Source: Anaerolineales bacterium
GTDB lineage: Bacteria; Chloroflexota; Anaerolineae; Anaerolineales; UBA6663
Length of the DNA: 31,668 nt
Direction of reading: 5' to 3'
NCBI GenBank assembly: GCA_033577755.1
Contig: JAVQXV010000018.1
Span: forward strand, 1 to 31,668
Position 1 is the stretch's first letter, and each line of letters starts with the position of its first letter. The position numbers and the translations under genes were made by a program. Below are positions 264-31,659 of this stretch, in pieces. Under the pieces are notes generated by a model. That model was given only the letters and a program-made list of their open reading frames with translations. It ran no database searches and was not told the DNA's origin.

Positions 264-1664
264 ATGCCGCAAACGCTTTTTGAAAAAATCTGGAATCAAC
301 ACGTCGTTGCGCAGGAGCCGGACTCGCCGGCCATCCTGTATATTGACCTGCACCTCGTCCACGAAGTGACCTCGCCGCAAGCTTTTGCCGGATTGCGCCG
401 GCGCGGTCTGCGCGTGCGCCGCCCGGATAAAACTGTGGCCACCTTAGACCACAGCATCCCAACTCATAGCCCCGACCTGCCCATCCTCGATGAGATGGCG
501 GCCAAGCAAATTCAGGTCATGGAGGACAACTGCCGCGAGTTCGGTATCCGCTTGTACGGCTTGCACTCACCACAGCGCGGCATCGTCCACGTCATCGGGC
601 CGGAGCTGGGGCTGACGCAGCCGGGCATGACCATCGTCTGCGGCGACAGCCACACTTCTACGCACGGCGCGTTCGGCGCGCTGGCATTCGGCATCGGCAC
701 CAGCGAAGTGGAGATGGTGCTGGCCACCCAGTGTCTGTTGCAGCGCAAGCCGAAGACGTATCAGGTGCACGTCGAAGGCCGGCTGAACCCCGGCGTATCG
801 GCCAAGGACATCATCCTCGCTTTGATCGCGAAGATTGGGGTGGGAGGGGGCACCGGCCACGTCTTCGAGTACACCGGGCCGGCCATCCGCGCGCTGACGA
901 TGGAGCAGCGCATGACCATCTGCAACATGAGCATTGAAGGTGGCGCACGTGCCGGCATGGTGGCTCCCGATGACACGACCTTCGAGTATCTGGCCGGGCG
1001 CGAGTATGCGCCGAAGGGCGCGGCCTGGGACGAAGCCGTAGCACGCTGGCGCCGGTTGCCCACCGATGAAGGCGCAACATACGACAAGTCCGTCACCCTC
1101 AACGCTTCCGAACTGGAGCCGATGATTACCTACGGCACCAACCCCGGTATGGGTATGCCCATCACCGGGCGCGTGCCTGACCCGGACACGGTGGCTGATG
1201 CCAATCAAAAACTAGCTCTGGAGAAGGCGCTCAAGTACATGGACCTGCGCCCCGGCCAGCCACTGCTTGGCCATCCGATCAACGTCGTCTTCATCGGAAG
1301 TTGCACCAACTCCCGCATCTCCGACCTGCGCCAGGCCGCCGAACTGCTGCGTGGCCGTAAAGTCGCGCCGGGCGTGCGGATGCTCGTCGTCCCCGGCTCA
1401 CAGGCGGTGAAGCGACAGGCCGAGGCGGAGGGGCTGGACAAGGTCTTTCTGGAGGCCGGGGCGGACTGGCGCCATGCGGGCTGCTCAATGTGCATCGCTA
1501 TGAACGGCGATCAGTTGCAGCCGGGCGAGTACGCCGTGAGCACCAGCAACCGCAACTTCGAGGGCCGGCAAGGCAAGGGCGGGCGCACCTTCCTCGCCTC
1601 GCCGCTCACCGCCGCTGCCGCCGCGATCACCGGCAAGATCACGGATGTGAGAACACTCCTTTGA
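264..1664 (+). CDS. leuC: 3-isopropylmalate dehydratase large subunit LeuC. The ORF track starts at a GTG at 201; homology supports the ATG at 264.
   Basis: Near full-length similarity to E. coli LeuC. Aconitase-family motifs are present ([17 protein letters not shown], three Cys ligands SCTNSR/GCSMC). Confidence 0.93.
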
Positions 1665-1764
1665 TTTCAGCTTGCCGATTTCTGATTGTTGATTTGAACT
1701 GACAATCAGCAATCAGCAATCAGTCAGCAATCAGCAATCAGAAATCAGAAATCAGAAATCAGAA
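1663..1764. repeat. Heptamer tandem array filling the leuC-leuD spacer. A GATTTCT/GATTGTT arm is followed by an inverted (C/A)AATCAG x ~9 arm, so a long hairpin is possible.
   Basis: Read directly: caatcag x2, tcag, caatcag x2, aaatcag x4, running into the leuD ATG. The upstream gatttctgatt is the exact reverse complement of aatcagaaatc. Confidence 0.85.
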
Positions 1765-2349
1765 ATGCCCCAATTTACTACTCTGACCTCTCGCTTGGTT
1801 GCGCTGCCGATCAACGACATTGACACCGACCAGATTATCCCGGCGCAATTCCTGAAGGTGACCGACAAAGCCGGGCTGGGCAATGCACTCTTCTTCAACT
1901 GGCGCTACAACGCCGACGGCTCGCTCAACCCTGACTTTGTACTGAACCGGCCTGAAGCGCAGGGCGCGCAGATCCTGCTGGCCGGCGACAACTTTGGCTG
2001 TGGCTCGTCGCGCGAGCACGCGCCCTGGGCGCTTACAGCCTACGGCTTCCGTGCCGTCATCAGCACCTCCTTCGCCGACATCTTCCGCGGTAACGCCCTG
2101 AAGAACGGCTTGCTGCCCATCATTGTGGACAAGGCCACGTATGCCGAGTTGCTCGAGCTTGCCGCCAAAGCACCGCAGGCCGAACTGACCGTAGACCTCG
2201 AAGCGCAAACCCTAACGCTGCCCGACGGCCGTGCGGTCACTTTCCCGATAGACGCCTTCTCGAAAGCGTGTCTGCTCAAAGGCACGGACGAGCTGGGCTA
2301 TATCCTGTCGTTTGAAGACCGCATCGCCGCCTACGAAGCGACCCATTGA
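1765..2349 (+). CDS. leuD: 3-isopropylmalate dehydratase small subunit LeuD
   Basis: LeuD-family motifs ([17 protein letters not shown]). Follows leuC directly. Confidence 0.92.
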
Positions 2350-2377
2350 CGGTTTGATGTTCAGGTGATTGCAAGCC

Positions 2378-3971: not shown

Positions 3972-4047
3972 GGTGATTGGAGATTGAAGATTGAAGACTG
4001 AAGACTGAAGACCGCACGGCCATTAGTCTTCAGTCATTAGTCATTCA
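3972..4047. repeat. Heptamer array GATTGGA/GATTGAA x3/GACTGAA x2, followed by its inverted copy (tagtcttcagtcattagtcattcag). This is a hairpin between cimA and leuB.
   Basis: Read directly. gaagactgaagac pairs with gtcttcagtc. It ends at the leuB RBS (agaggag) and TTG start. Confidence 0.85.
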
Positions 4048-4060
4048 GAGAGGAGCAGCA

Positions 4061-10679: not shown

Positions 10680-10845
10680 TGTGTGCACGCAAAGGTTGTC
10701 AGGGAACGTGCCGCCCCTTCGTCCTTCGGCGGGCATCCTGAGCTGAGCGAAGCGTAGTCGAAGGACGCCCGCCGCTCCCCTGAGCGCGCTCATCGGAGCG
10801 AAGCCGAAGGGTCAAGGTGCGGCTGACATGTTTTGGGTGCACACG
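10680..10845. repeat. MITE-like element 'B', long copy. Ends GTGTGCACGCA ... GGGTGCACAC. The internal stem pairs cgtccttcggcggg with cccgccg...cgaaggacg.
   Basis: Its ends match 133-166 and 200-229 of copy 1 in direct orientation. The centre is ~60 nt longer and palindromic. Confidence 0.5.
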
Positions 10846-10888
10846 ACCGGGTGACGTTCTTGAAAAGGATCATCAAAATGCCACAGAC

Positions 10889-11022
10889 TAGTGCCTTGTT
10901 AGGCAAGATATTGTAATTTGGGCGGGTTCGCCACTGGTCGGTTCATGTGCAATCGTAATGAGTTTTGATGGCGAAATGCTCGGTGTTGCGAAATATCAAA
11001 ATTCAACCTAACAAGGCACTAG
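10889..11022. mobile_element. MITE-like element 'A', complete copy 2, inverted relative to copy 1. The 16-bp terminal inverted repeats are ctagtgccttgttagg and cctaacaaggcactag.
   Basis: Reverse complement of window 1-127 with a few substitutions. Both terminal inverted repeats are readable. No ORF. Confidence 0.65.
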
Positions 11023-11122
11023 AGCGAATTCCTGATTGATTTACGGTTCCGTGACTGAAAACAGGTCGAATTTCGCATGCCTTGCCGTGATTCAAGCTGG
11101 AAACCGCTCTAGTACCAATCTC

Positions 11123-12166
11123 CTAAACGAGCCTGAGCAAGGTTTGAACCAGCACGGTGATGGCGCGTTGGTATTCGGAGAGCAAAATGTGCTCATCGGG
11201 CGTGTGGTCGAGCGCCGAGTCGCCCGGACCGTAGGCAACGATGGGTGTGCCCCAGGCCGGCCCGACAATGTTCATATCCGAAGTGCCGCTCTTCACCGAG
11301 AACGACGGGTTACCGCCCGCCTGTCGGATGGCGGCCAGCAGCGCGCGAACCAGCGGTGTGTTCTTCTCGCCGCGATACGCCGGCACGCCTTCGATCAGGT
11401 TGAGCGATGCTCCTGAAGCCAGCGCCGCCAGCGCGTTGTGTAGCTCGTCCACCGCCACGCCCGGCGGCAGTCGCACGCCGAACTTCAACCGCGCGTGCTC
11501 TATGAAACCATCGGAGCCGGAGCTCATCTCGCGTAGGGTGGGGAGCACCTGCTCGAACATCCTTGTGTGAGCGCTGTTGCGCTCTGCCGCCCACGCCGTC
11601 ACACGATTCCAGAAAGCCACCGCCGCCTCGCAGGCACTCTCGTCGCGCGCCGCAGTGTGGGCCAGCGCCCGCCGCACCTCGTAATCGAACCAGGCGCTGC
11701 CCTTGTAGCCGAGCGTCACCTTGTCCCAGCCGCTCGGCTCGCCGATGATGGTGAAGTCCGGGCGATACCGGTCTTTGATGAAGTGTGCGCCTCGACTGTT
11801 GCCTTCCTCGCCCACCGCGCCGATGACGATGACGCGCAGGCCCGACAGTTGCTCCTTCGCTCGAATCGCGGCAGCGGTGAACGCGGCCAGCGGGCCTTTG
11901 GCATCCACCGCGCCGCGCCCGTTGAGCCGGTCACCGTCACGCGTCACCGGGATGAAGCCGGGCACGGTGTCAATGTGGCCGAGCAGCATCACCGTCCGCG
12001 TTGCCTCGGCGGGGCCGGCCTCCCCGACCGCGTTGCCAACCTCATCCACGCGCGCCTCCAGCCCGCCGGCACGCATCTGCATGACGAGGTAATTCACGGC
12101 CTCGGCCTCCTGGCCGGTGGGGCTGTAGATTTTCAGGAGGTCTTCGAGGAGCTGGAGTTCGTCCAT
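11123..12166 (-). CDS. lysK: M20-family [LysW]-lysine/ornithine hydrolase (LysK/ArgE-like). It is the last gene of the lys operon.
   Basis: M20 motifs ([21 protein letters not shown]). The position after homoisocitrate dehydrogenase matches Thermus-type clusters. Confidence 0.8.
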
Positions 12167-12232
12167 GAGGAGATTGAAGATTGGAGATTGGAGATTGAAG
12201 ATTGGAGATTAGAGGTTGGAGAGGATGGCGCG
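12167..12232. repeat. AGATTGR heptamer x ~9 filling the entire spacer between the homoisocitrate dehydrogenase gene and lysK. It runs over the dehydrogenase stop codon.
   Basis: Read directly: agattga agattgg agattgg agattga agattgg agattag aggttgg. It also encodes the C-terminal ..SNL of the upstream protein. Confidence 0.9.
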
Positions 12233-13270
12233 GGTGATGTCTCGCAGGCTGGCGTTCCCGCCGAGGTCGCGCGTGCGGACGCCGGCGCGCAGCGTCTCGC
12301 AGACGGCGGTGCGCACGCGCTGTGCCGCTGCCGGCTGTCCGATATGGTCGAGCAGCATCGCCGCCGAGAGGATTGCGCCGACGGGGTTGGCCAGGCCCTG
12401 CCCGGCGATGTCGGGGGCGGCGCCGTGCACCGGCTCGAACACGGCAACGCTCTCGCCGAGGTTGGCCGAAGGCGCAACACCCAGCCCGCCCATCAGCGCG
12501 CCGGCTTCGTCGGAGAGGATGTCGCCGAATAGGTTGGTGGTCACAATGACGTCGAAGTTCTCCGGGTCACGCACCAATCGCAGCGCCATCGCGTCCACCA
12601 GCATCTCGTTCGTCCGAATGTCCGGGTATTCGGCGGCGACCTCGAGGCAGGTTTCGCGGAACAGGCCATCGGTAAGTTTGAAGACGTTGGCTTTGTGGAC
12701 GATGGTAACGGTGGGAGGGAGATTAGAGACTGGAGATTGAGATGAAGCTCTAATCTCCGATCTCCTTCTGGCCTGTTCAAACGCCACCCGCGTAATGCGC
12801 TCCGAGCCGCGCTTTGTAATCACGCGCTCGGCGATGGCGGTGTCGCCCTCGCGCCGTTCGCGGCCCACGTACAGGTCTTCGGTGTTTTCGCGCACGATGA
12901 GCAGGTCAACATTGGGGCGCGAGAACGGGCCGGGCAGGGAGAAGGTCGGTCGCAGGTTCGCGTACAGGTCGAACGTCCGGCGCAGGGCAAGGATCGGGCT
13001 GCGGTAGCCGGCGACGAGCGTGGAGGGGGAGGCCGTCGCCCCGAACAGGGCCACGCCCGCTGCGGCGACGTCCGCCAGCGTCTCGTCCGGGATGGCCTCC
13101 CCCGTTTTCTCGAAATGCGCAAAGCCGGCCTGCGCTTCGATGAACTTCAACCCGAGGCCGAGCGCGGCCAGCACCTCGGCGGCGGCAGGGATGACTTCCC
13201 GGCCGATGCCGTCGCCGGGGATGAGGACGATTTCTGATTTGTGATTGTGGATTGCTGATTGTGAGGCCAT
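12209..13270 (-). CDS. Homoisocitrate dehydrogenase (IPMDH family, Thermus HICDH-like). It carries a repeat-encoded N-terminal extension and a 16-aa internal insertion.
   Basis: Aligns along its length to T. thermophilus HICDH (LIVRENTE, HKANV, DVIVTTNLFGDILSDEA, FEPVHGAAPDIAG). It sits in the lys operon. Confidence 0.88.
   Translation of the reverse strand: MASQSAIHNHKSEIVLIPGDGIGREVIPAAAEVLAALGLGLKFIEAQAGFAHFEKTGEAIPDETLADVAAAGVALFGATASPSTLVAGYRSPILALRRTFDLYANLRPTFSLPGPFSRPNVDLLIVRENTEDLYVGRERREGDTAIAERVITKRGSERITRVAFEQARRRSEIRASSQSPVSNLPPTVTIVHKANVFKLTDGLFRETCLEVAAEYPDIRTNEMLVDAMALRLVRDPENFDVIVTTNLFGDILSDEAGALMGGLGVAPSANLGESVAVFEPVHGAAPDIAGQGLANPVGAILSAAMLLDHIGQPAAAQRVRTAVCETLRAGVRTRDLGGNASLRDITRAILSNL
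12711..12767. repeat. Palindromic GAGATTR array (ggagattagag ... ctctaatctcc) lying in frame inside the homoisocitrate dehydrogenase CDS.
   Basis: Read directly. It encodes SEIRASSQSPVSNLPP. This is absent from Thermus HICDH at the RPRK/TLHIAHKANV junction. Confidence 0.8.
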
Positions 13271-13300
13271 CCAGTCATCGGTCTTCAGTCATCAGTCAGA
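13231..13300. repeat. GATTTCT/GATTGTG heptamer array plus an AGTCATC-type array spanning the dehydrogenase start codon and the lysU stop codon.
   Basis: Read directly: gatttctgatttgtgattgtggattgctgattgtgaggccat..gtcatcggtcttcagtcatcagtcag. It encodes the N-terminal MASQSAIHNHKSE. Confidence 0.85.
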
Positions 13301-13837
13301 AACCCTCACCTCTTCGGTGCTCTCAATCCCCAGCCTGCGGCGCACGTGGGCGATCAGTCCGCCGGCTGCGATGATGCCGAGCGCGGTAGGCGAGAGCGGG
13401 GGAAAGGAATAGCGCCTGTTGCTCAGCTCGATAACGCTCTCTGCCAGATGGATAGTCAGCATGTCGCCGGTCTGCGCTGCGTCCACGACCTCCGGGCAGG
13501 TGATGAGCAGCAGGCCGTTGTTGAGGCCGTTGCGGAAGTAGATACGGGCGAACGACTTGGCGATGATGGCGGCGATGCCGCGATATTTCAGGCAGGTGAC
13601 GGCCTGCTCGCGCGAGCTGCCGTTGCCGAAGTTGCGCCCGGCCACGATGATGTCGCCCGGCTGCGCGCTGCGCGTGAACTCCGGGTCGAGGTCTTCGAGC
13701 GCATGGGCGGCAATCTCCGCCGGCTCACGTAGTGTGTAGGTGTACTTGCCGGGGAAGAGCACGTCGGTATTGATGCCGTCGCCGTACTTCCAGACTTTGC
13801 CGACAATGGGCATTGAGATATTGAGCGATTGAGTCAT
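13292..13837 (-). CDS. lysU: Homoaconitase / 3-isopropylmalate dehydratase small subunit, archaeal type (LysU)
   Basis: LeuD-like motifs (GKVWKYGDGINTD, GRNFGNGSSREQA). Adjacent to lysT and the dehydrogenase gene. Confidence 0.85.
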   Translation of the reverse strand: MTQSLNISMPIVGKVWKYGDGINTDVLFPGKYTYTLREPAEIAAHALEDLDPEFTRSAQPGDIIVAGRNFGNGSSREQAVTCLKYRGIAAIIAKSFARIYFRNGLNNGLLLITCPEVVDAAQTGDMLTIHLAESVIELSNRRYSFPPLSPTALGIIAAGGLIAHVRRRLGIESTEEVRVSD

Positions 13838-13850
13838 TGAGGATTGGTCT
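13811..13850. repeat. ATTGAGnn octamer x4-5 across the flotillin stop / lysU start overlap
   Basis: Read directly: attgagat attgagcg attgagtc attgagg attggtct. It encodes the lysU N-terminal MTQSLNIS. Confidence 0.7.
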
Positions 13851-15315
13851 GGGCCGGCGGTTCGGCGGGTGGCGTTTCCTTGAACAGGCGGGCGACGCGC
13901 GCCAGCACTTGCTCGATGTTTTGGCCGGAGAGCGCCTCTGTCTTGGCGTTGATGACGGTCGCCAGCTCAGGGATGTCGCGCAGGATGTTGGCCAGCGCGT
14001 TGCTGTGCGTTGCGTCGTTGCCGCCGAACTGGACGATGCGCACGTTCTGCCCGACGTTGCCCAGCGCCTGAGCAATTGCGCGCGCCTTCTCTACCTCCGC
14101 CTGAATGAGTAGCTGCGCAATGGTCTGGCGCAGGTTGATCTCGCCCTGGGCGGCTGTGGCCTGCGCCAACTTTTCCTTGCCTTCGGCCTCGGCCAGCAGG
14201 TTGGCGCGTGTGCCTTCCGCCTGTGCCAGCAGGGTCGCGCGCACGCCGTCGGCTTCCGCCGCCTTGAGCGCCCGCAGCTTTTCGGCCTCGGCAAGGCCGG
14301 TGCGCTCCAGCGCCTCGGCCTGGGCCGTGGACTCTTTCTTGAGCGCCTGAGCTTTTGCCTCTGCAATGATGGTGATGCGGCGGCTCTCGGCGTCGGCCTC
14401 GATCTGGGTGGCCTCACGCCGGGCGCGGGCCGGCGTCAGCACCTCGACCTCCTGCTGCTGCTGGACGAGCGCGGCGCGATTGCGCAGCACTTCTTCCTCA
14501 GCCTTGGTCTGAGCCAGGCTCACGGTCTTCGTTTTCTCGACCTCGCGCAGCTCCAGCGCCTGGCGCTGCTCAAGGATGGAGCGGGCGACGTCCAGCTCGG
14601 TCTGCTCGGCCTGTTGCCGGGCCTGTGCGGCTCTGATGCGCGCCTCGCGCTCGGCCTCGGCTTCCGCGATGGCGGCATCGCGTTTGATGGCGGCGATGCG
14701 TGGCTTGGCCATCGCTTCAAAGTAGCCCTGATCGTCGGTGATCTCCTCGATGCCCATCGAGATGATCTTGACGCCCATCGCCGCCATGTCGTCGTCGGCC
14801 AGGTCTTGCACGCTGCGCACGAAGGCGTCGCGGTCGCGATGGACGTTCTCCACCGTCAGCTGCCCGACGATGGCGCGGAAGTTGGCGCTCAGTGTCTGTG
14901 AGACGACGTTGATGACCTGTTCGCGGCTCATGCCGAGGAAGGCGCGGGCGGCGGTGATCAGCGCAGTCTTGTCGGAACCGATTTGTACCTGTGCCACCCA
15001 GTCCAGCTTGATGGGCACGCCGTCCACGGTGTACACCTCGTCGCCGGTCTTGACAATGGTCATCACGGTCAGATCAAGAAATTGGTATTCCTCGAAGAAC
15101 GGCAGAACGAACGTACCCCCGCCGGTGACCAGCCGGACCCCGGTCTGTTCGATGGAACCATCCTGTTTGAAGGTCGTCCGGCCACGCCCGTAGAGCACCA
15201 TGGCTTTGTTCGGCGGTACGCGGCGATAGACGGGGATGAACGAACGAAGGAGAAACAGCGCCAGACCTAGCAGAGCAAGGATGATGACGGCGGTCAAGAC
15301 GCTTTCGAAGAACAT
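13834..15315 (-). CDS. Flotillin / SPFH (band-7) domain membrane protein with a long Ala/Glu-rich coiled-coil tail. Inserted between lysT and lysU.
   Basis: N-terminal TM helix, an SPFH domain, and an EA-rich coiled coil like FloT/YuaG. Its stop codon overlaps the lysU start by 4 nt. Confidence 0.85.
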   Translation of the reverse strand: MFFESVLTAVIILALLGLALFLLRSFIPVYRRVPPNKAMVLYGRGRTTFKQDGSIEQTGVRLVTGGGTFVLPFFEEYQFLDLTVMTIVKTGDEVYTVDGVPIKLDWVAQVQIGSDKTALITAARAFLGMSREQVINVVSQTLSANFRAIVGQLTVENVHRDRDAFVRSVQDLADDDMAAMGVKIISMGIEEITDDQGYFEAMAKPRIAAIKRDAAIAEAEAEREARIRAAQARQQAEQTELDVARSILEQRQALELREVEKTKTVSLAQTKAEEEVLRNRAALVQQQQEVEVLTPARARREATQIEADAESRRITIIAEAKAQALKKESTAQAEALERTGLAEAEKLRALKAAEADGVRATLLAQAEGTRANLLAEAEGKEKLAQATAAQGEINLRQTIAQLLIQAEVEKARAIAQALGNVGQNVRIVQFGGNDATHSNALANILRDIPELATVINAKTEALSGQNIEQVLARVARLFKETPPAEPPAQTNPQ

Positions 15316-15417
15316 CGGACGCTCCTCAACTGAGAAGAAATGGAGACCGTTAGCTTTATATCATCCCGCTTCCGTTTCAGCCAGAGCTGAGCGTGACGGC
15401 ATTCTGACAAATACGCG

Positions 15418-16740
15418 CTAATCCAGCTCGCGCGGGTCGGTGATCACGCCGGTGACCGCGCTGGCCGCCACCACCGCCGGGCTGGCAAGATAGATTTCTG
15501 CTTCGGGCTGACCCATGCGGCCCTTGAAGTTGCGATTGGCCGAGGAGATACAGACCTCGCCCGGCGCGAGCACACCCATGTGGTTGCCCATGCATGGCCC
15601 GCAGCCCGGCGTGCCGAACATCGCGCCGGCCTCCAGTAACGTCTGCACATAGCCGCGCCGCACCGCCTCGCGATAGACCTCCGCCGAGGCCGGGACGATC
15701 AGCAGCCGTGCACCTGCCGCGACCCGTTTGCCCCGAATCACCTCCGCCGCCAGCGCCAGGTCTTCCAGCCGCCCGTTCGTGCAGGTGCCGATGAAGGCCT
15801 GATGGATGCGCGTGCCGCGAACCGCCGATAGCGGCTGTGTGTTGTCCACCGTATGCGGGCAGGACACCGTCAGCTCTATGGTTGAGCAATCAATGACGTG
15901 CGTCGCCACATAGTTCGCGTCCGCGTCGGGATAAATTGCGTTGGCCTGGATTTCGGATTTCTGATTTTGGATTTCTGATTGCAGGTCAATGCTACGCAAT
16001 GCGCTGTACGCCCTACGAACTCTTCTCTCGGCCAGATATTGAAAAACAGACTCGTCCGGCGGCAGATAGGCGTTCTTGGCGCCGAACTCGGCCATCATGT
16101 TGGGGATGACCATGCGGCTTTCAAGCGAGAAGGTAGCCAGCGCCGGCCCGTCGAACTCCACCGAGAGATACAGCCCGCCGTCTGCGCCGAACTTGCCGAT
16201 GAGGTGCAGGCACAGGTCTTTGGTGGTGATGCCTTTGCCAAGTGTACCGGTCAGCGTGAACTTGATGGTCTCCGGCACGCGCAGCCATAACTCGCCGGTT
16301 GCCCACAGCACGGCCACCTCGGTGCGGCCCACACCCGCCCCGAAGGCGCCCAGCCAGCCGAAGTGCGGCGTGTGCGAGTCCGCGCCGAGGATCAGCTGCC
16401 CCGGCAGGACGAGGGCCTCCTCGCTCAACACCTGATGGCAGATGCCGCGCCCGGCCTCGAAGAAGTGGCGCACGCCGTAGCGCGCGACGAACTCGCGCAC
16501 CTCGGCGTGGTTGCGCGCGTGCTGGGCAGTAGGCGCCGGCACGGCATGGTCGAGCGTGATGGCGAGCTTTTCCGGGATGGCCAGGTCCGCGACGCCGATG
16601 CTTTTGAAGATTCGGTAGATGGCGGCGGTGTTGTCGTGCGAGAGTACGAGGTCCGGGCGCGCATCCACCACTTGCCCGGCCACCGTCTCGCTTAACCCGG
16701 CGGCGCGGGCCAGCGCTTTTTCCGCGAAGGTTTTGCCCAT
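15418..16740 (-). CDS. lysT: Homoaconitase / isopropylmalate isomerase large subunit, archaeal/Thermus type (LysT)
   Basis: Aconitase-family motifs (GADSHT, three Cys [25 protein letters not shown]). About 440 aa. Confidence 0.88.
15948..15984. repeat. GGATTTC/TGATTTT heptamer x5 in frame inside lysT
   Basis: Read directly. It encodes [14 protein letters not shown] in a loop of the large subunit. Confidence 0.8.
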
Positions 16741-16800
16741 AGAGGTTTCTCTCGCGAAGTGCGCAAAGGTCGCAAAGCGTTAGCGTGCTTGGCGAGAGCC

Positions 16801-18120: not shown

Positions 18121-18179
18121 AGCAATTTGATGGGTTGATAGGGTGACGCGGTGACTCTCCTTTTCAGCCGGTCACCTCA
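18121..18179. repeat. Degenerate TGAYnnGG 8-9-mer array (ttgatggg ttgataggg tgacgcgg tgactctcc) in the spacer between the homocitrate synthase gene and lysJ
   Basis: Read directly. Weaker periodicity than the other arrays. Confidence 0.4.
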
Positions 18180-19376
18180 TCACTCCAACTCAGCAACGGC
18201 GGCTTTCACGGGCAGCGGCTGGGTCAGCACCGCCTCCACAGCTTCGGCGACGCGCGCCAGCTGGGCCTGCGAGATGACGAGCGGCGGCAGGAAGCGCATC
18301 ACCGTCAGGCCGGCGGGCAAGGCGAGCACGCGATGTTCGAGCATCAACGCCTGTAGATGCGGCGTCACCTTTTGTTTCAGCTCAATCCCGACCATCAGGC
18401 CCCGCCCCCGTACCTCGCGGATGAGCGGCGATTGGATTTGCGATAGCCGTCCGATAAACCACGCGCCCAACTCGGCGGCGCGCTCGGCCAGCCGCTCGCT
18501 TTCGAGGTAGCCGATGGCGGCGAGCGCAGCGGCGCAGGCCAGCGGGTTGCCGCCGAACGTCGAGCCGTGCACCTGCGGCGCGAGCCGGCCTACGCGCTCG
18601 TTGAAGACCACCGCCCCCATCGGCAGCCCGCCGGCGATGGATTTGGCCAGGCAAAGCATATCCGGCTCCAGGCCATGGTGCGCGCTGGCGAACATCGCCC
18701 CGGTGCGCCCGAAGCCCGTCTGCACTTCGTCGAGGATGAGCAGCGCGCCGCGTTCGCGGCACAGCCGTTGCGCGCCGAGCAGGAACTCCGCCGTGCCGGG
18801 CCGCACGCCGCCCTCGCCCTGAATCACCTCCAACACCACTGCGGCGGTTTTCTCAGTAACGGCGGCCTCCAGCGCGGCGAGGTCGTTGTACGGGATGTGG
18901 GTGAAGTCGGGGACGAGCGGCTCGAACGGCTCGCGGTACTTCTTCTCCCATGTGGCCGAGAGGGCGCCCATGGTGCGGCCGTGAAAGCCGCGCATGGCGG
19001 CGATGATCTGGCGGCGGCCGGTCTGGGCGCGTGCGAACTTGAACGCCGCCTCGTTGGCCTCCGCGCCGGAGTTGCACAGGAAGACGTAGCGCATCTCGCC
19101 GGGCGCGATGCTCACCAGCTTCTCCATCAGCGCCGCACGCTTGTCGTTGTAAAACATCTCCGGCACCGAGATGATGGTGCGGGCCTGTTCGGCGATGGCC
19201 GCTGCGACGGCGGGGTTGGCGTGTCCGAGGTTGCCGGCGCCCTGCCCACCGACGCAGTCTATGTACTCATTGCCGTCGCTGTCCCACACCGTTGCGCCCT
19301 CGCCGCGCACGATGGCGAGGGGACGTTTGGTGTACAGGCCGGAGGTGAAGCGGGACTCAAGGTCTTGAATGCTCAT
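18180..19376 (-). CDS. lysJ: Class-III PLP aminotransferase (acetylornithine / [LysW]-aminoadipate-semialdehyde aminotransferase, LysJ/ArgD)
   Basis: ArgD-family similarity. The PLP Lys context is LILDEVQTGFGRTG. The ATG overlaps the upstream gene's TGA (ATGA). Confidence 0.85.
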   Translation of the reverse strand: MSIQDLESRFTSGLYTKRPLAIVRGEGATVWDSDGNEYIDCVGGQGAGNLGHANPAVAAAIAEQARTIISVPEMFYNDKRAALMEKLVSIAPGEMRYVFLCNSGAEANEAAFKFARAQTGRRQIIAAMRGFHGRTMGALSATWEKKYREPFEPLVPDFTHIPYNDLAALEAAVTEKTAAVVLEVIQGEGGVRPGTAEFLLGAQRLCRERGALLILDEVQTGFGRTGAMFASAHHGLEPDMLCLAKSIAGGLPMGAVVFNERVGRLAPQVHGSTFGGNPLACAAALAAIGYLESERLAERAAELGAWFIGRLSQIQSPLIREVRGRGLMVGIELKQKVTPHLQALMLEHRVLALPAGLTVMRFLPPLVISQAQLARVAEAVEAVLTQPLPVKAAVAELE

Positions 19377-19768
19377 GAATTTCTGATTTGTGATTTCTGA
19401 TTGCGGATTGCGCGTTTGAGATTGCGTTTTGCGGTGCGCGACGTGGCGGTGAGGATCGCCACAATCTCATCACCCTCTTTCATCAGGCTGGCCAAACGTT
19501 TTTGCGGCATGAGGCCGGCATCCACAATCAGCTCCAGCCAATACAGGGACTCGTCCACTTCTTCAATGGCGACGTCCACTTTCGAAACGAAGTCTTTCCC
19601 TGATCTCCCTCGACAGGCTGACCGGTAATTTGCTCCGACCGATGTACCGGACCGTACAAGTTGTCGGGCTAACATATCGCCGGTGCGGGGCTTGGGTAAC
19701 GCTTCGACGACTTTGATGCAGCGCAGGCCGAAAGCTTTGGTGCGCTGTTTGAGTTCCTCGGGCGTCAT
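19373..19768 (-). CDS. Four-helix-bundle protein (TIGR02436-like, the '23S rRNA intervening-sequence protein' family). Inserted between lysZ and lysJ.
   Basis: Characteristic LARQLVRSGTSVGANYRSA and WLEL motifs. The C-terminal AIRNQKSQIRNS is encoded by a heptamer array. Confidence 0.7.
   Translation of the reverse strand: MTPEELKQRTKAFGLRCIKVVEALPKPRTGDMLARQLVRSGTSVGANYRSACRGRSGKDFVSKVDVAIEEVDESLYWLELIVDAGLMPQKRLASLMKEGDEIVAILTATSRTAKRNLKRAIRNQKSQIRNS
19378..19430. repeat. GATTTCT/GATTGCG heptamer array at the 3' end of the four-helix-bundle CDS and the lysJ start
   Basis: Read directly: gaatttctgatttgtgatttctgattgcggattgcg. Confidence 0.8.
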
Positions 19769-19809
19769 GTTGCCTCCGTCTGACGAAGTGGGTGAATGTG
19801 TAGAGCCTA

Positions 19810-19845
19810 CAATCAGAAATCAGCAATCAAAAATCAGGAAATCAC
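19810..19845. repeat. (C/A)AATCAG heptamer x5 between lysZ and the four-helix-bundle gene. It covers the lysZ stop and the last 3 codons.
   Basis: Read directly: caatcag aaatcag caatcaa aaatcag gaaatcac. Confidence 0.85.
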
Positions 19846-20643
19846 GGTGCCCTGTCCGGCCAGCGCATTCGCAATCGGCGTCGCCACGCGTCCATCGGCG
19901 AAGACGACCTTGGGCACGCCGAGCTGTATGGCCTCGCTCGCGCCGAGCACCTTTTTCTTCATGCGGCCCTCGGCAAAGTCAAGCGACTGCTCGATCTTGT
20001 CCTTGTCAATGTGCGTGATGAGTGTGCTCTCATCGGGGAAGTGGCGCAGCAGGCCCGGCACGTTGGTGAGGACGATGAGCTGCTCGGCGCGTATTGCACC
20101 CGCCACCATCGCCGCCGCCCGGTCGGCATCCACGTTCAGCGCCTCGCCCTCGGGCGAGATGGCCAGCGGCGCGATGACGGGCGTGTACCCCAGCTCCACC
20201 AGCCGGGTCAGCAGCGCGCCGTCTACGCTCTCGATTTTGCCCGTGTAATCGTCGCGCAGCATGCGCTGTTTGCCGGTCTGCGGGTCAATGATGCGGATGG
20301 CGTCCTTGCGCTTCGCCACCATCATGCGCCCATCCACGCCGGAGAGGCTGAAGGCGTTGACGCCCAGCTTTTGCAGCCGTTCGGTGATGAGGGTGCTGAT
20401 TTTGCCTGTCGTCACCATGGCGAAGATTTCGAGCGTCTGCCGGTCGGTGTAGCGCGAGGTGAAGCCGCTCGGCGAAGTGACCATGCGAGGCGGGTGGCCG
20501 AGCCGCTCCGAAATCGTGTTCGTCTCATCCGAACCGCCATGCACGACGACGAACTTGTGCCCTGACTTGATGTGCGCCGCGATGTCCGCCGTCACCGCTT
20601 CGAAATTGAGTCCGCTCGCTCCGCCGATTTTGATGACAATCAT
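19834..20643 (-). CDS. lysZ: Amino-acid kinase family [LysW]-aminoadipate kinase / acetylglutamate kinase (LysZ/ArgB)
   Basis: ArgB-like (VVKIGG, VVVHGGS, G-rich loops). Operon context. Confidence 0.85.
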   Translation of the reverse strand: MIVIKIGGASGLNFEAVTADIAAHIKSGHKFVVVHGGSDETNTISERLGHPPRMVTSPSGFTSRYTDRQTLEIFAMVTTGKISTLITERLQKLGVNAFSLSGVDGRMMVAKRKDAIRIIDPQTGKQRMLRDDYTGKIESVDGALLTRLVELGYTPVIAPLAISPEGEALNVDADRAAAMVAGAIRAEQLIVLTNVPGLLRHFPDESTLITHIDKDKIEQSLDFAEGRMKKKVLGASEAIQLGVPKVVFADGRVATPIANALAGQGTVIS

Positions 20644-20713
20644 TGGGTTATTTGGTGATGAGTCATTGAATCAATCGAACAATGACCCAATGAAACAATG
20701 AGTCAATGACTAG
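20644..20713. repeat. CAATGAnn-type octamer x ~8 filling the lysY-lysZ spacer
   Basis: Read directly: tgagtcat tgaatcaa tcgaacaa tgacccaa tgaaacaa tgagtcaa tgactag. It spans the lysY stop and the lysZ start. Confidence 0.8.
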
Positions 20714-21750: not shown

Positions 21751-21823
21751 CAATCGTTCTCTTGCAGAGCCTGCCGGGGACGCCCAAAAAGTTTTTGTGC
21801 ACTTCGAGTACTTGGCGGGAGGA

Positions 21824-22723
21824 TCATGCCGGGAACTCGCGCGGCACCGGCCGGTAACGCTCCTTGAACTCCGCTTTGCGCCGGCCCACTTCCAGCGTGT
21901 AGTCAATGATGATGCCGGGAATGTCCACGCCGGTGGCCGGCACGGTGGAATGAAATTCCATCGTATGATTGATTTCGTTCACCAGCAGGCCGCGGTCGCG
22001 GTCCTCCAGCAGGTCAATCGCCAGCACGCCGCCGCCCACTGCCTGCGCGGCCCGGATGCAGATGTCATTCAGCGCCGGCGTCACCGGGCACACCGTCGCT
22101 TTGCCGCCGCGCGCTGTGTTGGTGATCCAGTGAGACGAGTGACGGTAGATGGCGCAGATCGTTTGGTCGCCGACGACAAAGGCGCGAATGTCACGGCCCG
22201 GCTTCTTCACGTATTCCTGGATGTAGAAGATGTTCTGCTGGTAATTGCCGAGCGCTACCCGATGCTCGAGCACGGCCTCGGCGGCGTCGCGGTCATTGAT
22301 CTTGGCAACCATCCGCCCCCACGAGCCGATAACGGGCTTGAGCACCACCGGGAAGCCCAGGTCTTCCATCGCCTCGATGGCGCTCTCCGGCGTGAAGGCC
22401 ACGCGTAGGTGCGGCTGCGGCACGCCCGCCTTCTTCAACGCCGCCGAAGTCCACAGCTTGTCGCCGCAGGTATCGGCCACGTTGGCGGTATTGACGGTGG
22501 GGATGCCCCAGGCGTTGAGTATCTTGCAAGCATACAGTCCGCGCCCGTAGGAGATGCTACGCTCCAGCACAACGTCATACTTCTCCCACTCGCCGGGGTC
22601 TTCGACCGAAAATTTGACCTCGCGGTCATCCAGCCGGTCGTAGTCCACGCCGCGCTTTTCGAGCGCTTCGAACAGCCACTTCTCCTCCACGCGCAGCCGG
22701 GAGTACAGGACGCCGACCTTCAT
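21824..22723 (-). CDS. lysX: ATP-grasp alpha-aminoadipate--LysW ligase LysX (RimK family)
   Basis: Collinear similarity to T. thermophilus LysX ([50 protein letters not shown]). Confidence 0.9.
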
Positions 22724-22891
22724 GTGTGTTTATCGAGTAGTCAAGTAGTCGAGTGGTCAAGTGGTCAAATCGTCGAATAGTCAAGTGGTCGAGTCTTCAC
22801 GCGCCAGGCGACCAACGGTTCGCAAAATTGACAGACCACAAGACGACTGGACTACAAGACCACCAGACCAAATGACCCAATAACCAAATGA
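22724..22891. repeat. Two adjacent octamer arrays, TCRAGTRG x8 at 22735-22800 and GACCACAA-type x8 at 22830-22890. They make up the entire 168-nt lysW-lysX spacer.
   Basis: Read directly: tcgagtag tcaagtag tcgagtgg tcaagtgg tcaaatcg tcgaatag tcaagtgg; gaccacaa gacgactg gactacaa gaccacca gaccaaat gacccaat aaccaaat. Confidence 0.85.
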
Positions 22892-23071: not shown

Positions 23072-23090
23072 CACAACGTTCTCCTTTATG

Positions 23091-24762: not shown

Positions 24763-24777
24763 TTGTGGTAAGGAGCT

Positions 24778-28307: not shown

Positions 28308-30320
28308 TCAGACCAGATTTCTGGGCACGGTCTCCAGCCAGCTTTTCCGAAAGAACACGTTTCCGTTCAGCTTCACCGTTAACTCGAGGTCGAGGTGAAA
28401 GTCCGTCTCGGTGCTGCGGACTGCCCCGACGGAGCGAACGTGCGTCTCGTAGCCTTTCTCTTTCAGCAGGTAGTTGCACTCGTGGACGAGTTGCGCATGT
28501 GCAGGGTCGGCATGAAAGGCCGTTATCGCCAGACGCTCATCGGTGAACAGGGAGACGCCGTCGGGCAGGATGGTGGTGTCCGCGCCGTAGCTGTGCACGG
28601 TGACGCTGCCCGCCAGCACGTCCTCGGTAATGTGCCATTGCGCCTCCCCTTCGGAGTTGCTGCCCACGTTGGTCAGTTCGGGCGGCGTGGTCTTGAATGC
28701 GGGTGGGGGCAATTCGTCTGAAGGGGTGAGGGGCAGCGTGAGCCGCGAGGGGTGCGCCGGGCCGGTGTGGATGGTGAGTGTGCAGGCATAGGGCGATGGC
28801 CACAACATCGGGAAAAGGTTGCTGCCCAGCGTGAGCCGGATTCGGTGACCGGTTCGCCAACGGTAGCCCGTGACCTTGAGCGGCACGCGCACGGCGTAGA
28901 TTTCGCCGGGCGTCAGCGGCTTCGGTTCGGCGTGGCTCTCGCGGTGCGTCAGGTTGAGCGCGCCCTGCGTCACCAGCGCCGAGGTTCCGTCGGGATGCAC
29001 GTCGCACAGGCGCGCGGCAAGCGTGGCGACCGGCGCGCTGCAACTGACGTACACAGTCAGCTCCGGGAAGCCGAGAACTTCCAGTGGCTCGGCCAGCGGT
29101 TCGGTGGTGAATGTGAGCGCCAACGCTTCATCCGGGCGCTGATCGCGGGCCAGGCCGTTGGGCGCGCTGCCCCCGCCGGAGCTGAACGGGCCGGTGAGGC
29201 CCCAGGCCGGGCGGTGCGGGATTTCTGATTTTTGATTGTGGATTGCGGATTTCGGATGGAGGCCTGGGGAGTCCAAGTAGAAAGTAGAAAGTGAAAAATC
29301 GGAGGGCGGATAGGCGGCGTAGCTGCGCCACTCGCCGTTCTGCGCGGCGGGGAAGGGGTTGGGCGGCGTCCACTCGCGCAAGAAAACGGTGACCGGCGGC
29401 TCGGCCATCACCCCGTTGTCTTTGCCCTTTAGCCAATAGTCGAAGAAGCGCACCATCTCACGGAGATGGTCTAGGTTCGGGCCGGGATAGCCGTCCGCCG
29501 GGTACACGTGCCCCCAGTTGCCGATGAGGGCCTTGCGCGGCGCGTTGACGCACTGCGCCTGCATCCGCAGCACGGCGTCGGTGTAGCCGTCGTTCCAGCC
29601 GCCGATGTGGAAGAGCGCGCAGGTGATGCGCTCGTACTCCGGGGCAAGCGAGCCGCTGCGATAGTACGGGCCGTCTGTCTGCTGCCTCAGCCATTCGAGC
29701 AGCCAGGGCGGCGTCCGCTCCAGCCGCTCCTTCCACAGCGACGCCCAATTCTCCCTCACGTACTCGGCCCTGGGCGGCAGCGCGTTCATGGCCACCATGC
29801 TGACGGCGTATTGCGCCAGGTCGCTCATCGTCAGGCAGCCGCCGTAGTAGTGCACGTCCGTCAGGTAGCGGTCGTCGGTAGCGTATATGGGGATGATGGC
29901 CTTGAGGTGCGGCGGTTGTAGTTTGGCCACCTGGATGGCCGTGAAGCCGCCGTAGCTGATGCCCCACATGCCGACGTTGCCGTTGCACCACGGCTGCGCG
30001 GCCAGCCACTCCACGACCTCGTAGCCATCCTGCGTCTCCTCGGGCGTGTATTCGTCGCGCGCCAGACCGCCGCTGGAGCCGGTGCCGCGCACGTCCACGC
30101 GGCAGCCCACGTAGCCGCGCTGCGCGAAGTACGTCATCCGCGCCATGTCGCTGTTGTAGCGCCAGTCGTCTTTGCGATACGGGATCATCTCCAGAATGGC
30201 CGGGAATCTCTCGCCCGGCTCGCGCGGTATCGGCAGCCAGAGATTGGCCGAAAGCTCGACGCCGTCGCGCATCTTCAGGCGGACGTTGTGTTGGACTTGA
30301 GTGTCGTAGAGTTCAGACAT
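28308..30320 (-). CDS. CocE/NonD-family (S15, X-Pro dipeptidyl-peptidase-like) alpha/beta hydrolase. Start is taken as MSELYDTQ; the track ORF begins 6 codons upstream.
   Basis: N-terminal VRLKMRDGVELSANLWLP, a nucleophile-elbow region (GMWGISYGG) and a C-terminal beta-sandwich are typical of CocE/NonD. Confidence 0.8.
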   Translation of the reverse strand: MSELYDTQVQHNVRLKMRDGVELSANLWLPIPREPGERFPAILEMIPYRKDDWRYNSDMARMTYFAQRGYVGCRVDVRGTGSSGGLARDEYTPEETQDGYEVVEWLAAQPWCNGNVGMWGISYGGFTAIQVAKLQPPHLKAIIPIYATDDRYLTDVHYYGGCLTMSDLAQYAVSMVAMNALPPRAEYVRENWASLWKERLERTPPWLLEWLRQQTDGPYYRSGSLAPEYERITCALFHIGGWNDGYTDAVLRMQAQCVNAPRKALIGNWGHVYPADGYPGPNLDHLREMVRFFDYWLKGKDNGVMAEPPVTVFLREWTPPNPFPAAQNGEWRSYAAYPPSDFSLSTFYLDSPGLHPKSAIHNQKSEIPHRPAWGLTGPFSSGGGSAPNGLARDQRPDEALALTFTTEPLAEPLEVLGFPELTVYVSCSAPVATLAARLCDVHPDGTSALVTQGALNLTHRESHAEPKPLTPGEIYAVRVPLKVTGYRWRTGHRIRLTLGSNLFPMLWPSPYACTLTIHTGPAHPSRLTLPLTPSDELPPPAFKTTPPELTNVGSNSEGEAQWHITEDVLAGSVTVHSYGADTTILPDGVSLFTDERLAITAFHADPAHAQLVHECNYLLKEKGYETHVRSVGAVRSTETDFHLDLELTVKLNGNVFFRKSWLETVPRNLV
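29218..29317. repeat. GGATTTC/TGATTTT/GGATTGC heptamer x6 followed by an AAAGTAG-type array, in frame inside the CocE/NonD CDS
   Basis: Read directly. It encodes ..FSLSTFYLDSPGLHPKSAIHNQKSEIPHRP... Confidence 0.8.
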
Positions 30321-30489: not shown

Positions 30490-31659
30490 ATGTCGAAACG
30501 CGACTACCAGTATATCGTCCTCGGCCTGGGCGGGCTGGGGAGCGCCGCTGCCTACTGGCTGGCGCGTCGCGCCGGGAGCGAGGTGCTCGGCCTGGAGCAG
30601 TTCGAGCTGGGGCACGACCGCGGCGGCTCGCACGACCACTCGCGCATCATTCGCCTCTCCTATCACACGCCGGGCTATGTGCAACTGGCGAAGGCCGCGT
30701 ATGAGGCCTGGGCAGCGCTGGAAGCCGACTCCGGCGAGAGCCTCATCCTCAAGACGGGCGGCCTCGACCTGTTCCCAGCAGGCGGCGCCATCCCGCTGGC
30801 CGACTATACCGAAAGCCTGACTGCGGCCGGCGTGCCCTTTGAGCTGCTTGACGCCGCTGAGACGAAGCGCCGCTGGCCGCAGTGGCACTTGCCCGACGAC
30901 GTGCAGGTGCTCTATCAGTCCGAGGGCGGCATCGCCCCCGCGAACCGGGGCACGGCGACTCACCGCCGAATGGCCCGCCAACACGGCGCTACCCTCCGTG
31001 ACCAATCTCCAATCTCTTATCTCCATTCCCAAAACGGCGAAATCGAAGTCACCGCTGCTGGCCAAACCTACCGCTGCGAAAAACTCATCCTCACCGCCGG
31101 CGCATGGTCAAATCGGCTGCTGGCCCATTTCGACATTCAATTGCCGCTCACCGTTACTCAGGAGCAGCTGACGTACTTCACTACGCCATATCTGGACGAG
31201 TTCGCGCCGGAGCGTTTCCCTATTTGGATTTGGATGGACGAGCCGTGCTTCTACGGCTTCCCCGTCTATGGCGAGCGGGCGGTGAAGGGCGCGCAGGACG
31301 TGGGCGGGCGCGAGGTGACCGTCGAGACCCGCACCTTTGAGCCGGACGCGGCCAACCTGCAACGGCTGTCTGCATTCTTCGAGAAGCACCTGCCGCGCGC
31401 CTACGGCCCTCCGCTGCTCACCAAGACCTGCCTGTACACCCTCACGCCCGACCGCGACTTCATCATTGACGCCCTCCCCGACCACCCCAATGTCCTCATC
31501 GCCATCGGCGCAGCCCACGACTTCAAGTTCTCGTCGCTCATCGGCCGGATCCTGGCCGACCTGGCGGTGGATGGCGCAACAACGCACGACTTGTCTCCGT
31601 TCAAAATCAACCGGCCTATCCTGCAAATGGCGAACCCGCCGCGGAACTTCATGATTTGA
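30490..31659 (+). CDS. FAD-dependent oxidoreductase of the monomeric sarcosine oxidase / N-methyl-L-tryptophan oxidase (SolA/MSOX) family
   Basis: GxGxxG (IVLGLGGLGSAAAYWLA), GGSHDHSRIIR and the C-terminal DFIIDALP..HDFKFSSLIGRILADLA align to E. coli SolA. The Cys site for covalent FAD appears to be replaced (AAHDFKF). Confidence 0.8.
   Translation: MSKRDYQYIVLGLGGLGSAAAYWLARRAGSEVLGLEQFELGHDRGGSHDHSRIIRLSYHTPGYVQLAKAAYEAWAALEADSGESLILKTGGLDLFPAGGAIPLADYTESLTAAGVPFELLDAAETKRRWPQWHLPDDVQVLYQSEGGIAPANRGTATHRRMARQHGATLRDQSPISYLHSQNGEIEVTAAGQTYRCEKLILTAGAWSNRLLAHFDIQLPLTVTQEQLTYFTTPYLDEFAPERFPIWIWMDEPCFYGFPVYGERAVKGAQDVGGREVTVETRTFEPDAANLQRLSAFFEKHLPRAYGPPLLTKTCLYTLTPDRDFIIDALPDHPNVLIAIGAAHDFKFSSLIGRILADLAVDGATTHDLSPFKINRPILQMANPPRNFMI
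30995..31030. repeat. CCAATCT heptamer array (reverse complement of AGATTGG) in frame inside the flavoenzyme CDS
   Basis: Read directly: gaccaatctccaatctcttatctccattcc. It encodes DQSPISYLHS, where SolA has a different short beta-strand. Confidence 0.65.

Follow-up and report, generated by a model that had tools for sequence, protein, structure and literature searches.

How can a tandem repeat with a 7-nt unit lie inside the reading frame of a conserved enzyme without breaking it, and where would such a repeat come from? The question is raised by a 31,668-nt stretch of DNA from an Anaerolineales bacterium (assembly GCA_033577755.1, contig JAVQXV010000018.1, positions 1 to 31,668 of the forward strand; the whole stretch is called the window below), in which arrays of degenerate heptamers occur both between and within genes, among them the gene for homoisocitrate dehydrogenase (HICDH). 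Tandem repeats in open reading frames (ORFs) whose unit length is not divisible by three are a classic substrate of phase variation. A first-pass annotation made from the sequence alone listed six array-encoded protein segments, and it left open whether they are tolerated loop insertions or mark a slippage-driven or programmed event. Four of the six stand (the interior and the N-terminus of HICDH, LysT, and the tail of a four-helix-bundle protein of the S23p family), and two, in a CocE/NonD hydrolase and an MSOX-like oxidase, do not. From comparison of sequences across relatives and metagenomes, we favor, on balance, the view that the arrays within reading frames are tolerated, translated copies of lineage-wide heptamer and octamer arrays related to S23p elements that resemble intervening sequences (IVS).

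In-frame arrays in conserved enzymes

The HICDH gene (12209..13270, minus strand) encloses a palindromic, in-frame heptamer array at 12711..12767 on the same strand, consisting of GGAGATT ×3 and AATCTCC ×3. The array encodes RRRSEIRASSQSPVSNLPP, within the spanning peptide ASSQSPVSNLPPTVTIVHK, for a net gain of 13–14 aa. The palindrome is imperfect: its arms (12715–12738 and 12745–12768, 24 nt each), composed of GGAGATT-type and AATCTCC-type heptamers, are 75% complementary with an 11-nt perfect core, and the predicted RNA fold has an energy of −22.9 kcal/mol (z = −2.8). The first-pass annotation had stated that Thermus HICDH has nothing at this point, and alignment to the Thermus structures (1x0l and 3asj) confirms it, with a 13-residue gap exactly at the array position. 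Insert-free relatives have 6–7 residues at this loop, compared with 20 in the window.

The same loop is occupied throughout the group. Among 120 Chloroflexota homologues it is the sole internal site at which length varies, with 0–37 extra residues (both termini also vary), and it holds at least 13 residues in 64 of the 88 scorable homologues, against the basal 6–7. Apart from HICDH and LysT (see below), the proteins of the operon have no internal inserts in these relatives. The loop DNA, retrieved from about 25 genomes, consists of in-frame heptamer arrays with a lineage-specific unit, several of them palindromic. Units of the GACGGCG/CGCCGTC type are found in relatives L001, L019 and L023, CTCAAAT ×5 in L008, CAGTCAG in L004 and GGCAGAA in L005; a lag of 7 was the best periodicity in 9 of the 15 inserts of at least 11 aa. 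In L081, an 86%-identical relative, the palindrome has the same length and is in frame, with only 8 of 16 residues identical, so that it diverges faster than its flanks. In an AlphaFold model of the window protein (predicted local distance difference test score, pLDDT, 87.5), insert residues 172–177 extend helix 153–177, residues 178–186 form a loop before strand 187–192, and the remaining fold is intact. The model fits a tolerated surface addition. Together with the restriction of internal length variation to this loop and the retention of frame despite divergence, it supports the suggestion that these are tolerated loop insertions.

A 10-nt perfect inverted repeat (12659–12668, GAACAGGCCA; 12769–12778, TGGCCTGTTC) also brackets the HICDH palindrome, with a 100-nt spacing. 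Both copies lie within conserved codons (EQA and GLF) and are present in L081; the arrangement is probably coincidental.

Array DNA likewise supplies the N-terminal extension of HICDH (13226..13270, minus strand), where the units AATCAGC, AATCCAC, AATCACA and AATCAGA encode MASQSAIHNHKSE. There is no alternative in-frame ATG, GTG or TTG ahead of the conserved IVLIPGDG. The first 10 residues have low confidence and are disordered in the AlphaFold model. In L081, the segment is built from a different heptamer family (CCGCCGT), and the total protein length, 353 aa, is unchanged.

LysT, the large subunit of homoaconitase, carries an in-frame array of the AATCAGA family at 15946..15984 on the minus strand, with five units at 15946–15980. 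The gain reported for this protein corresponds to a 15–17 residue gap in the alignment with the isopropylmalate isomerase of M. jannaschii (4nqy). The site bears arrays in most relatives: they are palindromic in L012 (GATTTCA ×5/AATCNAA ×6), L023 (GAGCGNN/NNCGCTC), L011 and L019, and reach 12 units in L006.

The two remaining sites behave differently from what had been claimed. In the CocE/NonD hydrolase, an AATCAGA-family array in a loop (29217..29257, minus strand) encodes KSAIHNQKSEI, with no net gain in length. The proposed insertion of about 30 aa was rejected, as the loop has the minimal, and majority, length among 120 homologues; DFSLSTFYLD, its upstream half, is native conserved sequence. 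The excess over Rhodococcus CocE is only about 9 aa, in a region where the alignment is poor. AATCAGA-type units fill the loop in the window and in L086, and CAGTCAT-type units of equal length fill it in L084 and L085. Simple insertion does not account for such replacement of one array by another, here and at the HICDH N-terminus, nor does point mutation. Over 32 nt, the CocE array is 94% identical to that of the HICDH N-terminus. A shared order of unit variants was considered as evidence of copying between these two sites and dropped, since 655 of 2000 unit shuffles reach the same match. In the MSOX-like gene, AATCTCC-like periodic DNA (30999..31025, plus strand) encodes the native motif QSPISYL. 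The decapeptide DQSPISYLHS, taken to be a gain, matches the conserved motif x-S/A-P-I/V-T/S-x-I/L; it shows no gap relative to the MSOX structures in the PDB and no length variation in 120 homologues, and an insertion was rejected. The periodicity here is probably a chance or native resemblance.

Unit sequence and recurring peptides

The arrays are far more numerous than expected by chance. With Tandem Repeats Finder (TRF), 13 merged period-7 arrays were found in the window (G+C 63%), whereas 50 dinucleotide shuffles gave 1.18 on average and at most 4. They consist of 7-nt units arranged head to tail in at least three copies, as in heptanucleotide simple-sequence repeats (SSRs) and short tandemly repeated repetitive (STRR) sequences, with 76–93% matches within arrays. 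An AATC/GATT core is common to at least 10 array sites of the window and to arrays across the clade. Array density is 0.3–1.5 per kb in the close clade (HICDH roughly at least 65% identical) and about 0–0.1 per kb, near background, in distant taxa (Anaerolinea, Phototrophicaceae and non-Chloroflexota loci).

As 7 and 3 have no common factor, all three frames of a heptamer array translate into an identical cycle of 7 residues, and either every frame of a strand is free of stop codons or none is. The first-pass annotation correctly observed that three heptamers equal seven codons; this, combined with the frame independence of the cycle, accounts for the recurring peptides SEIxNQK and QSPISNL. 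The unit AATCAGA (NQKSEIR) is open, and its complement TCTGATT contains TGA. AATCTCC (NLQSPIS) and GGAGATT (GDWRLEI) are both open. Therefore, a complete palindrome inside a gene, such as that of HICDH, is possible only for the GGAGATT/AATCTCC family. Units that are closed on the sense strand are confined to the spaces between genes, and the stop codon there often comes from them.

A G-quadruplex explanation was also rejected. The units GGAGATT, AATCAGA and AATCTCC do not contain GGG, and a structure that requires at least four consecutive tracts of at least three G is inapplicable to arrays whose units have no G-tracts. The whole window gave no match to Rfam families at the gathering score.

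The S23p cassette

The inverted arrays that bracket a small S23p gene, a feature that the first-pass annotation had missed, provide the best clue to the nature of the arrays. The minus strand of the window carries a LysW-type (α-aminoadipate) lysine-biosynthesis operon in the order lysW, lysX, lysY, lysZ, S23p-family gene, lysJ, homocitrate synthase, lysT, Band7, lysU, HICDH, lysK. The S23p gene (19373..19768, minus strand), between lysZ and lysJ, encodes a four-helix-bundle protein of the S23p/23S-rRNA-IVP/TIGR02436 type (PF05635, E = 2.5e-16; TIGR02436, E = 2.7e-23). On its 3' side, the right arm of the cassette (19374..19413, minus strand; AATCCGC AATCAGA AATCACA AATCAGA), an array of NNAATCA units, encodes the C-terminal tail of the protein and overlaps the lysJ start codon. 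That this tail, AIRNQKSQIRNS, is array-encoded had been proposed, and it is borne out by L009 and L023, in which the ORF stops ahead of the same array. On the 5' side, the left arm (19805..19846, minus strand) is a TGATTNN array that begins at the lysZ stop codon and pairs with the right arm.

The predicted minimum-energy fold of the 481-nt cassette contains 34 long-range pairs between 19805–19846 and 19374–19413, with an arm duplex of −33.5 kcal/mol. Within the window, inverted flanks are unique to the S23p gene (z = 10.5, compared with less than 2 for 10 other genes). The inverted-arm arrangement recurs in L002, L009, L019 and L023, and the units of the two arms change together, being TCTGATT/AATCAGA in the window and GCGATTT/AAATCGC in L009. 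L001 has no S23p gene at lysZ/lysJ; it has a 37-aa S23p relic with an array tail at lysY/lysZ. The predicted stem pairs the lysZ stop region with the lysJ start region across the inserted 400-nt gene. Such pairing would bring the two cistrons together, which might matter for coupled translation or for exact excision.

The association extends well beyond this locus. A metagenome scan with the S23p alignment gave 78 loci at 35–85% identity, 54 of which (35–74% identical) had both flanks and were examined for inverted repeats together with 40 control positions in the same loci. Flanking inverted repeats with z of at least 4 were found at 31 of the 54 S23p loci (26 with z of at least 6), compared with 1 of the 40 controls. 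The arms consist of 3–7 heptamer units that are specific to the locus and mostly have a GATT core; the 3' arm and the end of the ORF often overlap. The cassettes occupy lysY/lysZ, lysZ/lysJ, leuC/leuD, nuoD/nuoE/nuoF, a position upstream of herA, and other sites. Gene-less palindromes are found at the same types of junction; the one at lysY/lysZ in L009 uses the same units as that genome's own S23p arms and has a predicted energy of −63 kcal/mol.

Two side observations concern these loci. Metagenomic locus L117 (Ga0315268_10004561, 1–3477) contains two S23p genes in the order nuoD, S23p, nuoE, S23p, nuoF, and the tail of the first is array-encoded (KSLNHKSLNH). The arms flanking S23p genes are typically 24–35 nt (about 3.5–5 units), and proteins of the Avd family are pentamers. 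PF05635 shows homology to Avd (PMC10053308), which in diversity-generating retroelements acts as a pentameric, basic partner of the reverse transcriptase. Such a retroelement would be expected to have a reverse transcriptase gene and a template/variable repeat pair next to the Avd-like gene; no reverse transcriptase domain was detected among the scanned ORFs of the window, and no long direct repeat pair near the S23p gene.

Arrays at operon junctions

The plus strand of the window carries a leucine operon in the order leuC, leuD, leuA, leuB, followed by pheA. Almost all junctions within the lys and leu operons bear an array or a hairpin, with nine sites in all. These arrays lie between co-directional ORFs, near or overlapping start and stop codons, and the stop codons of leuC, lysW, lysY, lysZ, lysU and HICDH are located inside them. 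Comparison of the window with L081, L001 and L002 showed that array position is conserved and that length and sequence vary; hairpins are kept at the same junctions in relatives, with co-varying arms.

The junction arrays fall into two classes, palindromic ones with strong predicted stems and one-directional ones that are unstructured. The largest palindrome of the window is gene-less and lies at leuC/leuD (1661..1766, plus strand; GATTTCT... and AATCAGC, AATCAGA × about 9; z = −5.5), a junction type at which distant taxa have an S23p cassette. A second gene-less palindrome is found at leuA/leuB (3972..4048, plus strand; GATTGAA/GAAGACT and complements; z = −4.5), and a long palindrome made of octamer arrays at lysW/lysX (22736..22891, minus strand; z = −4.7). 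The octamer array at lysY/lysZ (20650..20710, minus strand; GTCATTGN) has a short inverted partner and contains the lysY stop codon.

The array that covers the end of the HICDH gene, stop codon included, and reaches the lysK start (12169..12222, minus strand) is one-directional, with 6–7 AATCTCC/AATCTTC units; it contains no G and has zero predicted RNA structure. Between the lysU stop and the HICDH start, an intergenic CAGTCAT/ATGACTG array (13272..13298, minus strand) includes the lysU stop codon. An octamer array (13811..13846, minus strand; TCTCAATG on the sense strand) spans the Band7 stop and the lysU start and N-terminus. Most of the in-gene arrays are single arms without predicted structure.

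Sequence variation within and between species

The nearest relative, L081, shares about 90% nucleotide identity with the window in coding DNA; L081, L082 and L083 are identical to one another. At this distance array lengths differ, as in the array between HICDH and lysK, which has 6 units in the window and only about 2 in L081. Within the species, contigs from three sequencing runs, SRR15826901, SRR15826902 and SRR25904939, found by exact-protein look-ups and compared as consensus assemblies rather than reads, are 99.93–100% identical to the window over 11059–30643. This comparison yielded eight single-nucleotide polymorphisms (SNPs), of which two fall in arrays; the arrays showed no indels. 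The window sequence is reproduced in independent Logan assemblies, which answers the concern that the arrays might be assembly errors.

The first-pass annotation had proposed unit-number variation as the sign of phase-variable frameshifts. No such variation leading to out-of-frame alleles was seen in the contigs of the three runs, in L081–L083 or in the homologues, and every homologue examined is in frame. A search of JGI metagenomes for strain variants of the HICDH insert, with conserved flanks and a variable gap, returned no matches. The arrays are not near-perfect tracts in surface or host-interaction genes; their units match at 76–93% and their hosts are lysine-biosynthesis enzymes. The comparison of sequences indicates that array turnover proceeds at the pace at which species diverge, and that the arrays are not hypermutable switches. 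This timescale, together with the degenerate units and the housekeeping nature of the host genes, argues against phase variation.

The two SNPs in arrays are located at 13831 (A for G in L089) and 20664 (T for C in L092), both within junction arrays, which make up about 4–5% of the compared sequence and hold two of the eight SNPs. The SNP at 13831 coincides with a different start call for lysU (173 aa versus 181 aa).

Other features of the window

Beyond the lys operon, the window carries the CocE/NonD hydrolase and the MSOX-like oxidase. The top protein matches are to uncultured Chloroflexota labelled Anaerolineae, Anaerolineales or Thermoflexales. The Band7/SPFH gene between lysT and lysU (13834–15315, minus strand) is found there in this species only and is absent from that position in L081, L001 and L002; L081 nevertheless has the octamer array at the start of lysU. 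Two long ORFs are over-extended, those of lysW (22892–23356, minus strand, 154 aa) and lysY (20710–21906, minus strand, 398 aa). Gene calls on identical contigs (L090) give 59 aa for LysW and 346 aa for LysY, and the extra upstream parts overlap array or lysX sequence.

A 129-nt AT-rich element occurs twice in opposite orientation, at 1–129 and 10884–11012, with 95% complementarity. Its terminal inverted repeats are CTAGTGCCTTGTTAGG... and ...CCTAACAAGGCACTAG (10888–10919 versus 10991–11022), and direct repeats flank it (125–165 resembles 10681–10721, and 196–228 resembles 10812–10844). The copies lie upstream of leuC and in a gap of roughly 1 kb between lysK and an S8 peptidase gene. The element looks like a miniature inverted-repeat transposable element (MITE) and has no Rfam match; independent assemblies break nearby, at about 11059–11109.

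Origin of the in-frame arrays

We propose that the normal home of the arrays, which are heptamers, mostly AATCNNN/NNNGATT, plus octamers, would be the spacers between co-directional cistrons. There, two inverted arms would form a long stem that either encloses a small S23p gene (PF05635, Avd-like, in the architecture of a 23S rRNA IVS) or makes a gene-less hairpin. When a start or stop codon shifts across a junction array, the array would become an N- or C-terminal extension; alternatively, an array may arise in, or land in, a coding loop. Survival within an ORF would depend on two conditions, namely (i) that the unit is open on the sense strand and (ii) that the site is a presumably solvent-exposed loop or terminus. 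Once occupied, a site would stay occupied, with the array turning over by gain, loss and replacement of units at about 10% sequence divergence and remaining stable within the species. The gene-less and in-frame arrays would then be derivatives or relatives of the S23p cassette, and some form of mobility, or processing of the arrays by RNase III, may be involved.

Several observations weigh against this proposal. The unit family of the S23p arms is shared by only part of the window's arrays, the HICDH palindrome belonging to the AATCTCC family and several junctions being octamers; hence, we infer descent from the cassette rather than observe it. Clearly inverted flanks are lacking at 23 of the 54 S23p loci. 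There is no direct sign of transposition, and comparison of insert-bearing with insert-free orthologues revealed neither a target-site duplication nor fixed terminal sequences at the HICDH site. The negative shuffle test of unit order between the HICDH N-terminus and CocE belongs here as well. At CocE and MSOX, array-like DNA replaces or equals sequence of native length, so a simple insertion model fails at these sites. Cause and effect could also be exchanged, the hairpins having come first and the S23p genes having inserted into them, and the evidence comes from loci of 1–20 kb.

The alternative that survives best, which we regard as possible yet doubtful, is that the arrays are simple-sequence repeats born by polymerase slippage, arising in place at weakly constrained positions such as junctions, loops and termini, and that their link to S23p reflects nothing more than shared permissive spacers. 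Unit number does differ between relatives at fixed positions, and neighboring units are the most alike along an array, for example in the LysT array of L006. The negative unit-order test points the same way. Moreover, heptamer excess elsewhere in bacteria has been attributed to slippage (PMC4679880, PMC4692102), and Chloroflexus tops a survey of bacterial satellites (PMC6749651). However, random seeding would not give a single AATC/GATT core at 10 or more window sites and across the clade. Nor would it yield matched inverted arms that change together in copy number and unit variants (L081, L002 and L009), or explain inverted arrays at 31 of 54 S23p genes in many operons when controls show them at 1 of 40.

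Less probable still, and in our view unlikely, is that the arrays are selected RNA or DNA signals rather than neutral passengers, with the in-gene copies also acting at the RNA level through pausing or mRNA decay. Possible roles include intercistronic hairpins for RNase III cleavage or stability, unstructured leaders for translation initiation, and sites of coupling between cistrons. The presence of a hairpin or array at nearly every lys/leu junction is compatible with such roles, as are the persistence of same-junction hairpins with co-varying arms in relatives and the S23p stem, which covers the lysZ stop and the lysJ start. The G-free, structureless array directly upstream of lysK and the retention of the HICDH palindrome in both the window and L081 can be read in the same way. 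The in-gene copies fit less well: the palindrome is much less perfect (75%, z = −2.8) than those between genes (z = −4.5 to −5.5), most in-gene arrays are single arms without predicted structure, many orthologues have no insert at all, and Rfam matches are lacking.

Phase-variable or programmed-frameshift switches, in which a change in unit number toggles the enzymes or the arrays promote recoding, are very improbable. Repeats of this kind in ORFs are indeed a classic substrate of such switching (PMC4679880), yet the three same-species runs show no array indels, L081–L083 are identical, the units are degenerate, all homologues are in frame, and the hosts are single-copy lysine-biosynthesis enzymes. 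Assembly artefacts or chance resemblances, to which the native MSOX motif is best ascribed (about one period-7 match per window is expected), are less probable again and are refuted for all other sites by the Logan assemblies, by homologous arrays in dozens of independent metagenome-assembled genomes and metagenomes, and by the count of 13 arrays against 1.18 expected.

Comparison with known repeat systems

Heptamer repeats have been described in Xanthomonas (GGGAATC), Nostoc/Anabaena (GGGGATT), cyanobacterial STRR sequences, and Beggiatoaceae and cyanobacteria (TAACTGA) (PMC4692102, PMC4679880). The window's arrays resemble them in the 7-nt unit, in many cases with a GATT/AATC core, and in their position between co-directional ORFs within about 50 nt of the start or stop codon, often overlapping the stop. 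In both cases, positions are conserved and length and sequence vary, some arrays form inverted pairs, and a fraction lies inside genes. Translation of the "reverse" strand into a 7-residue repeat was already reported for the published repeats (PMC4692102, PMC4679880). The present arrays differ in belonging to another phylum, Chloroflexota (Anaerolineae/Thermoflexales-like), and in their lack of G-tracts. They also recur, in many lineages, at fixed loops of conserved enzymes, and they are tied statistically to S23p, a link not found in PMC4692102 or PMC4679880. The GATT/AATC core is present in most window units and in the S23p arms (L093–L170), as in the Xanthomonas and Nostoc units.

The cassette, on its predicted fold, resembles the S23p-bearing IVS of 23S rRNA described in Coxiella, Leptospira, Salmonella and elsewhere (PMC4990558); in both, a long stem of terminal inverted repeats encloses the ORF. 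The stem around the Coxiella ORF is cleaved by RNase III, and strain-variable heptameric repeats occur at the 5' end, where RNase III cuts (PMC4990558). Cassettes of the window type differ in lying between protein-coding cistrons (lys, leu, nuo and others) rather than in rRNA. There is no rRNA at the lysZ/lysJ cassette, and its location is not helix 25 or 45 of 23S rRNA. Furthermore, the stems are themselves heptamer arrays, and gene-less versions and in-frame copies exist.

As in the Rickettsia palindromic elements (RPEs; PMC10969869), palindromic DNA is found in frame in unrelated housekeeping genes, compatible with fold and function and encoding a recurring peptide; in HICDH and LysT, the insertions lie in frame at structurally permissive sites of conserved genes. 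RPEs are about 100–150 bp long with a family consensus, whereas the present arrays are 35–60 nt of 7-nt units, without consensus or defined ends, and one orthologous site holds different unit families in different lineages. Copies here share only the 7-nt unit, and the consensus of about 100–150 bp, terminal inverted repeats and duplication typical of a MITE were not found.

The tandem repeats of Borg elements reportedly create disordered protein regions (PMC9879509). Both systems would be rapidly evolving nucleotide repeats that extend ORFs with low-complexity peptide. The present arrays would differ in having a period of 7, not a multiple of 3, which gives a peptide period every three units, and in being short, degenerate and often palindromic arrays in chromosomal biosynthetic enzymes. 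A literature search, weak in that subscription journals lay outside it, returned no heptamer arrays in Chloroflexota genes and no non-rRNA S23p cassettes with heptamer arms. The combination of such cassettes with gene-less derivatives and in-frame copies in enzyme loops thus appears to be unreported in the searchable literature.

Implications

Repeat-encoded peptides that recur at fixed enzyme loops across a whole Chloroflexota clade affect annotation, alignment of orthologues and structure prediction. The arrays at these loops also constitute a natural experiment in the tolerance of a loop to insertion.

A broader proposal, put forward tentatively and with clearly less confidence than the derivation of the in-frame arrays from junction arrays, is that a widespread IVS-like element exists outside rRNA, with the heptamer arrays as its cis-acting ends and the S23p/Avd-like pentameric protein as its trans factor. 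The full element would be (GATTNNN)n – S23p ORF – (NNNAATC)n, colonizing sites between the cistrons of conserved operons. Hairpins without a gene and solo arms would represent its non-autonomous derivatives, and it is these that would be written in frame into enzyme loops. If this is true, the function of PF05635/TIGR02436 would be to bind, process or mobilize heptamer-array RNA or DNA, perhaps together with host RNase III or a reverse transcriptase, and the proposal could explain why heptanucleotide repeats have long been seen in excess in certain bacterial phyla. The link between S23p and the arrays offers a testable handle both on the nature of IVS/S23p elements and on this over-representation of heptanucleotides.

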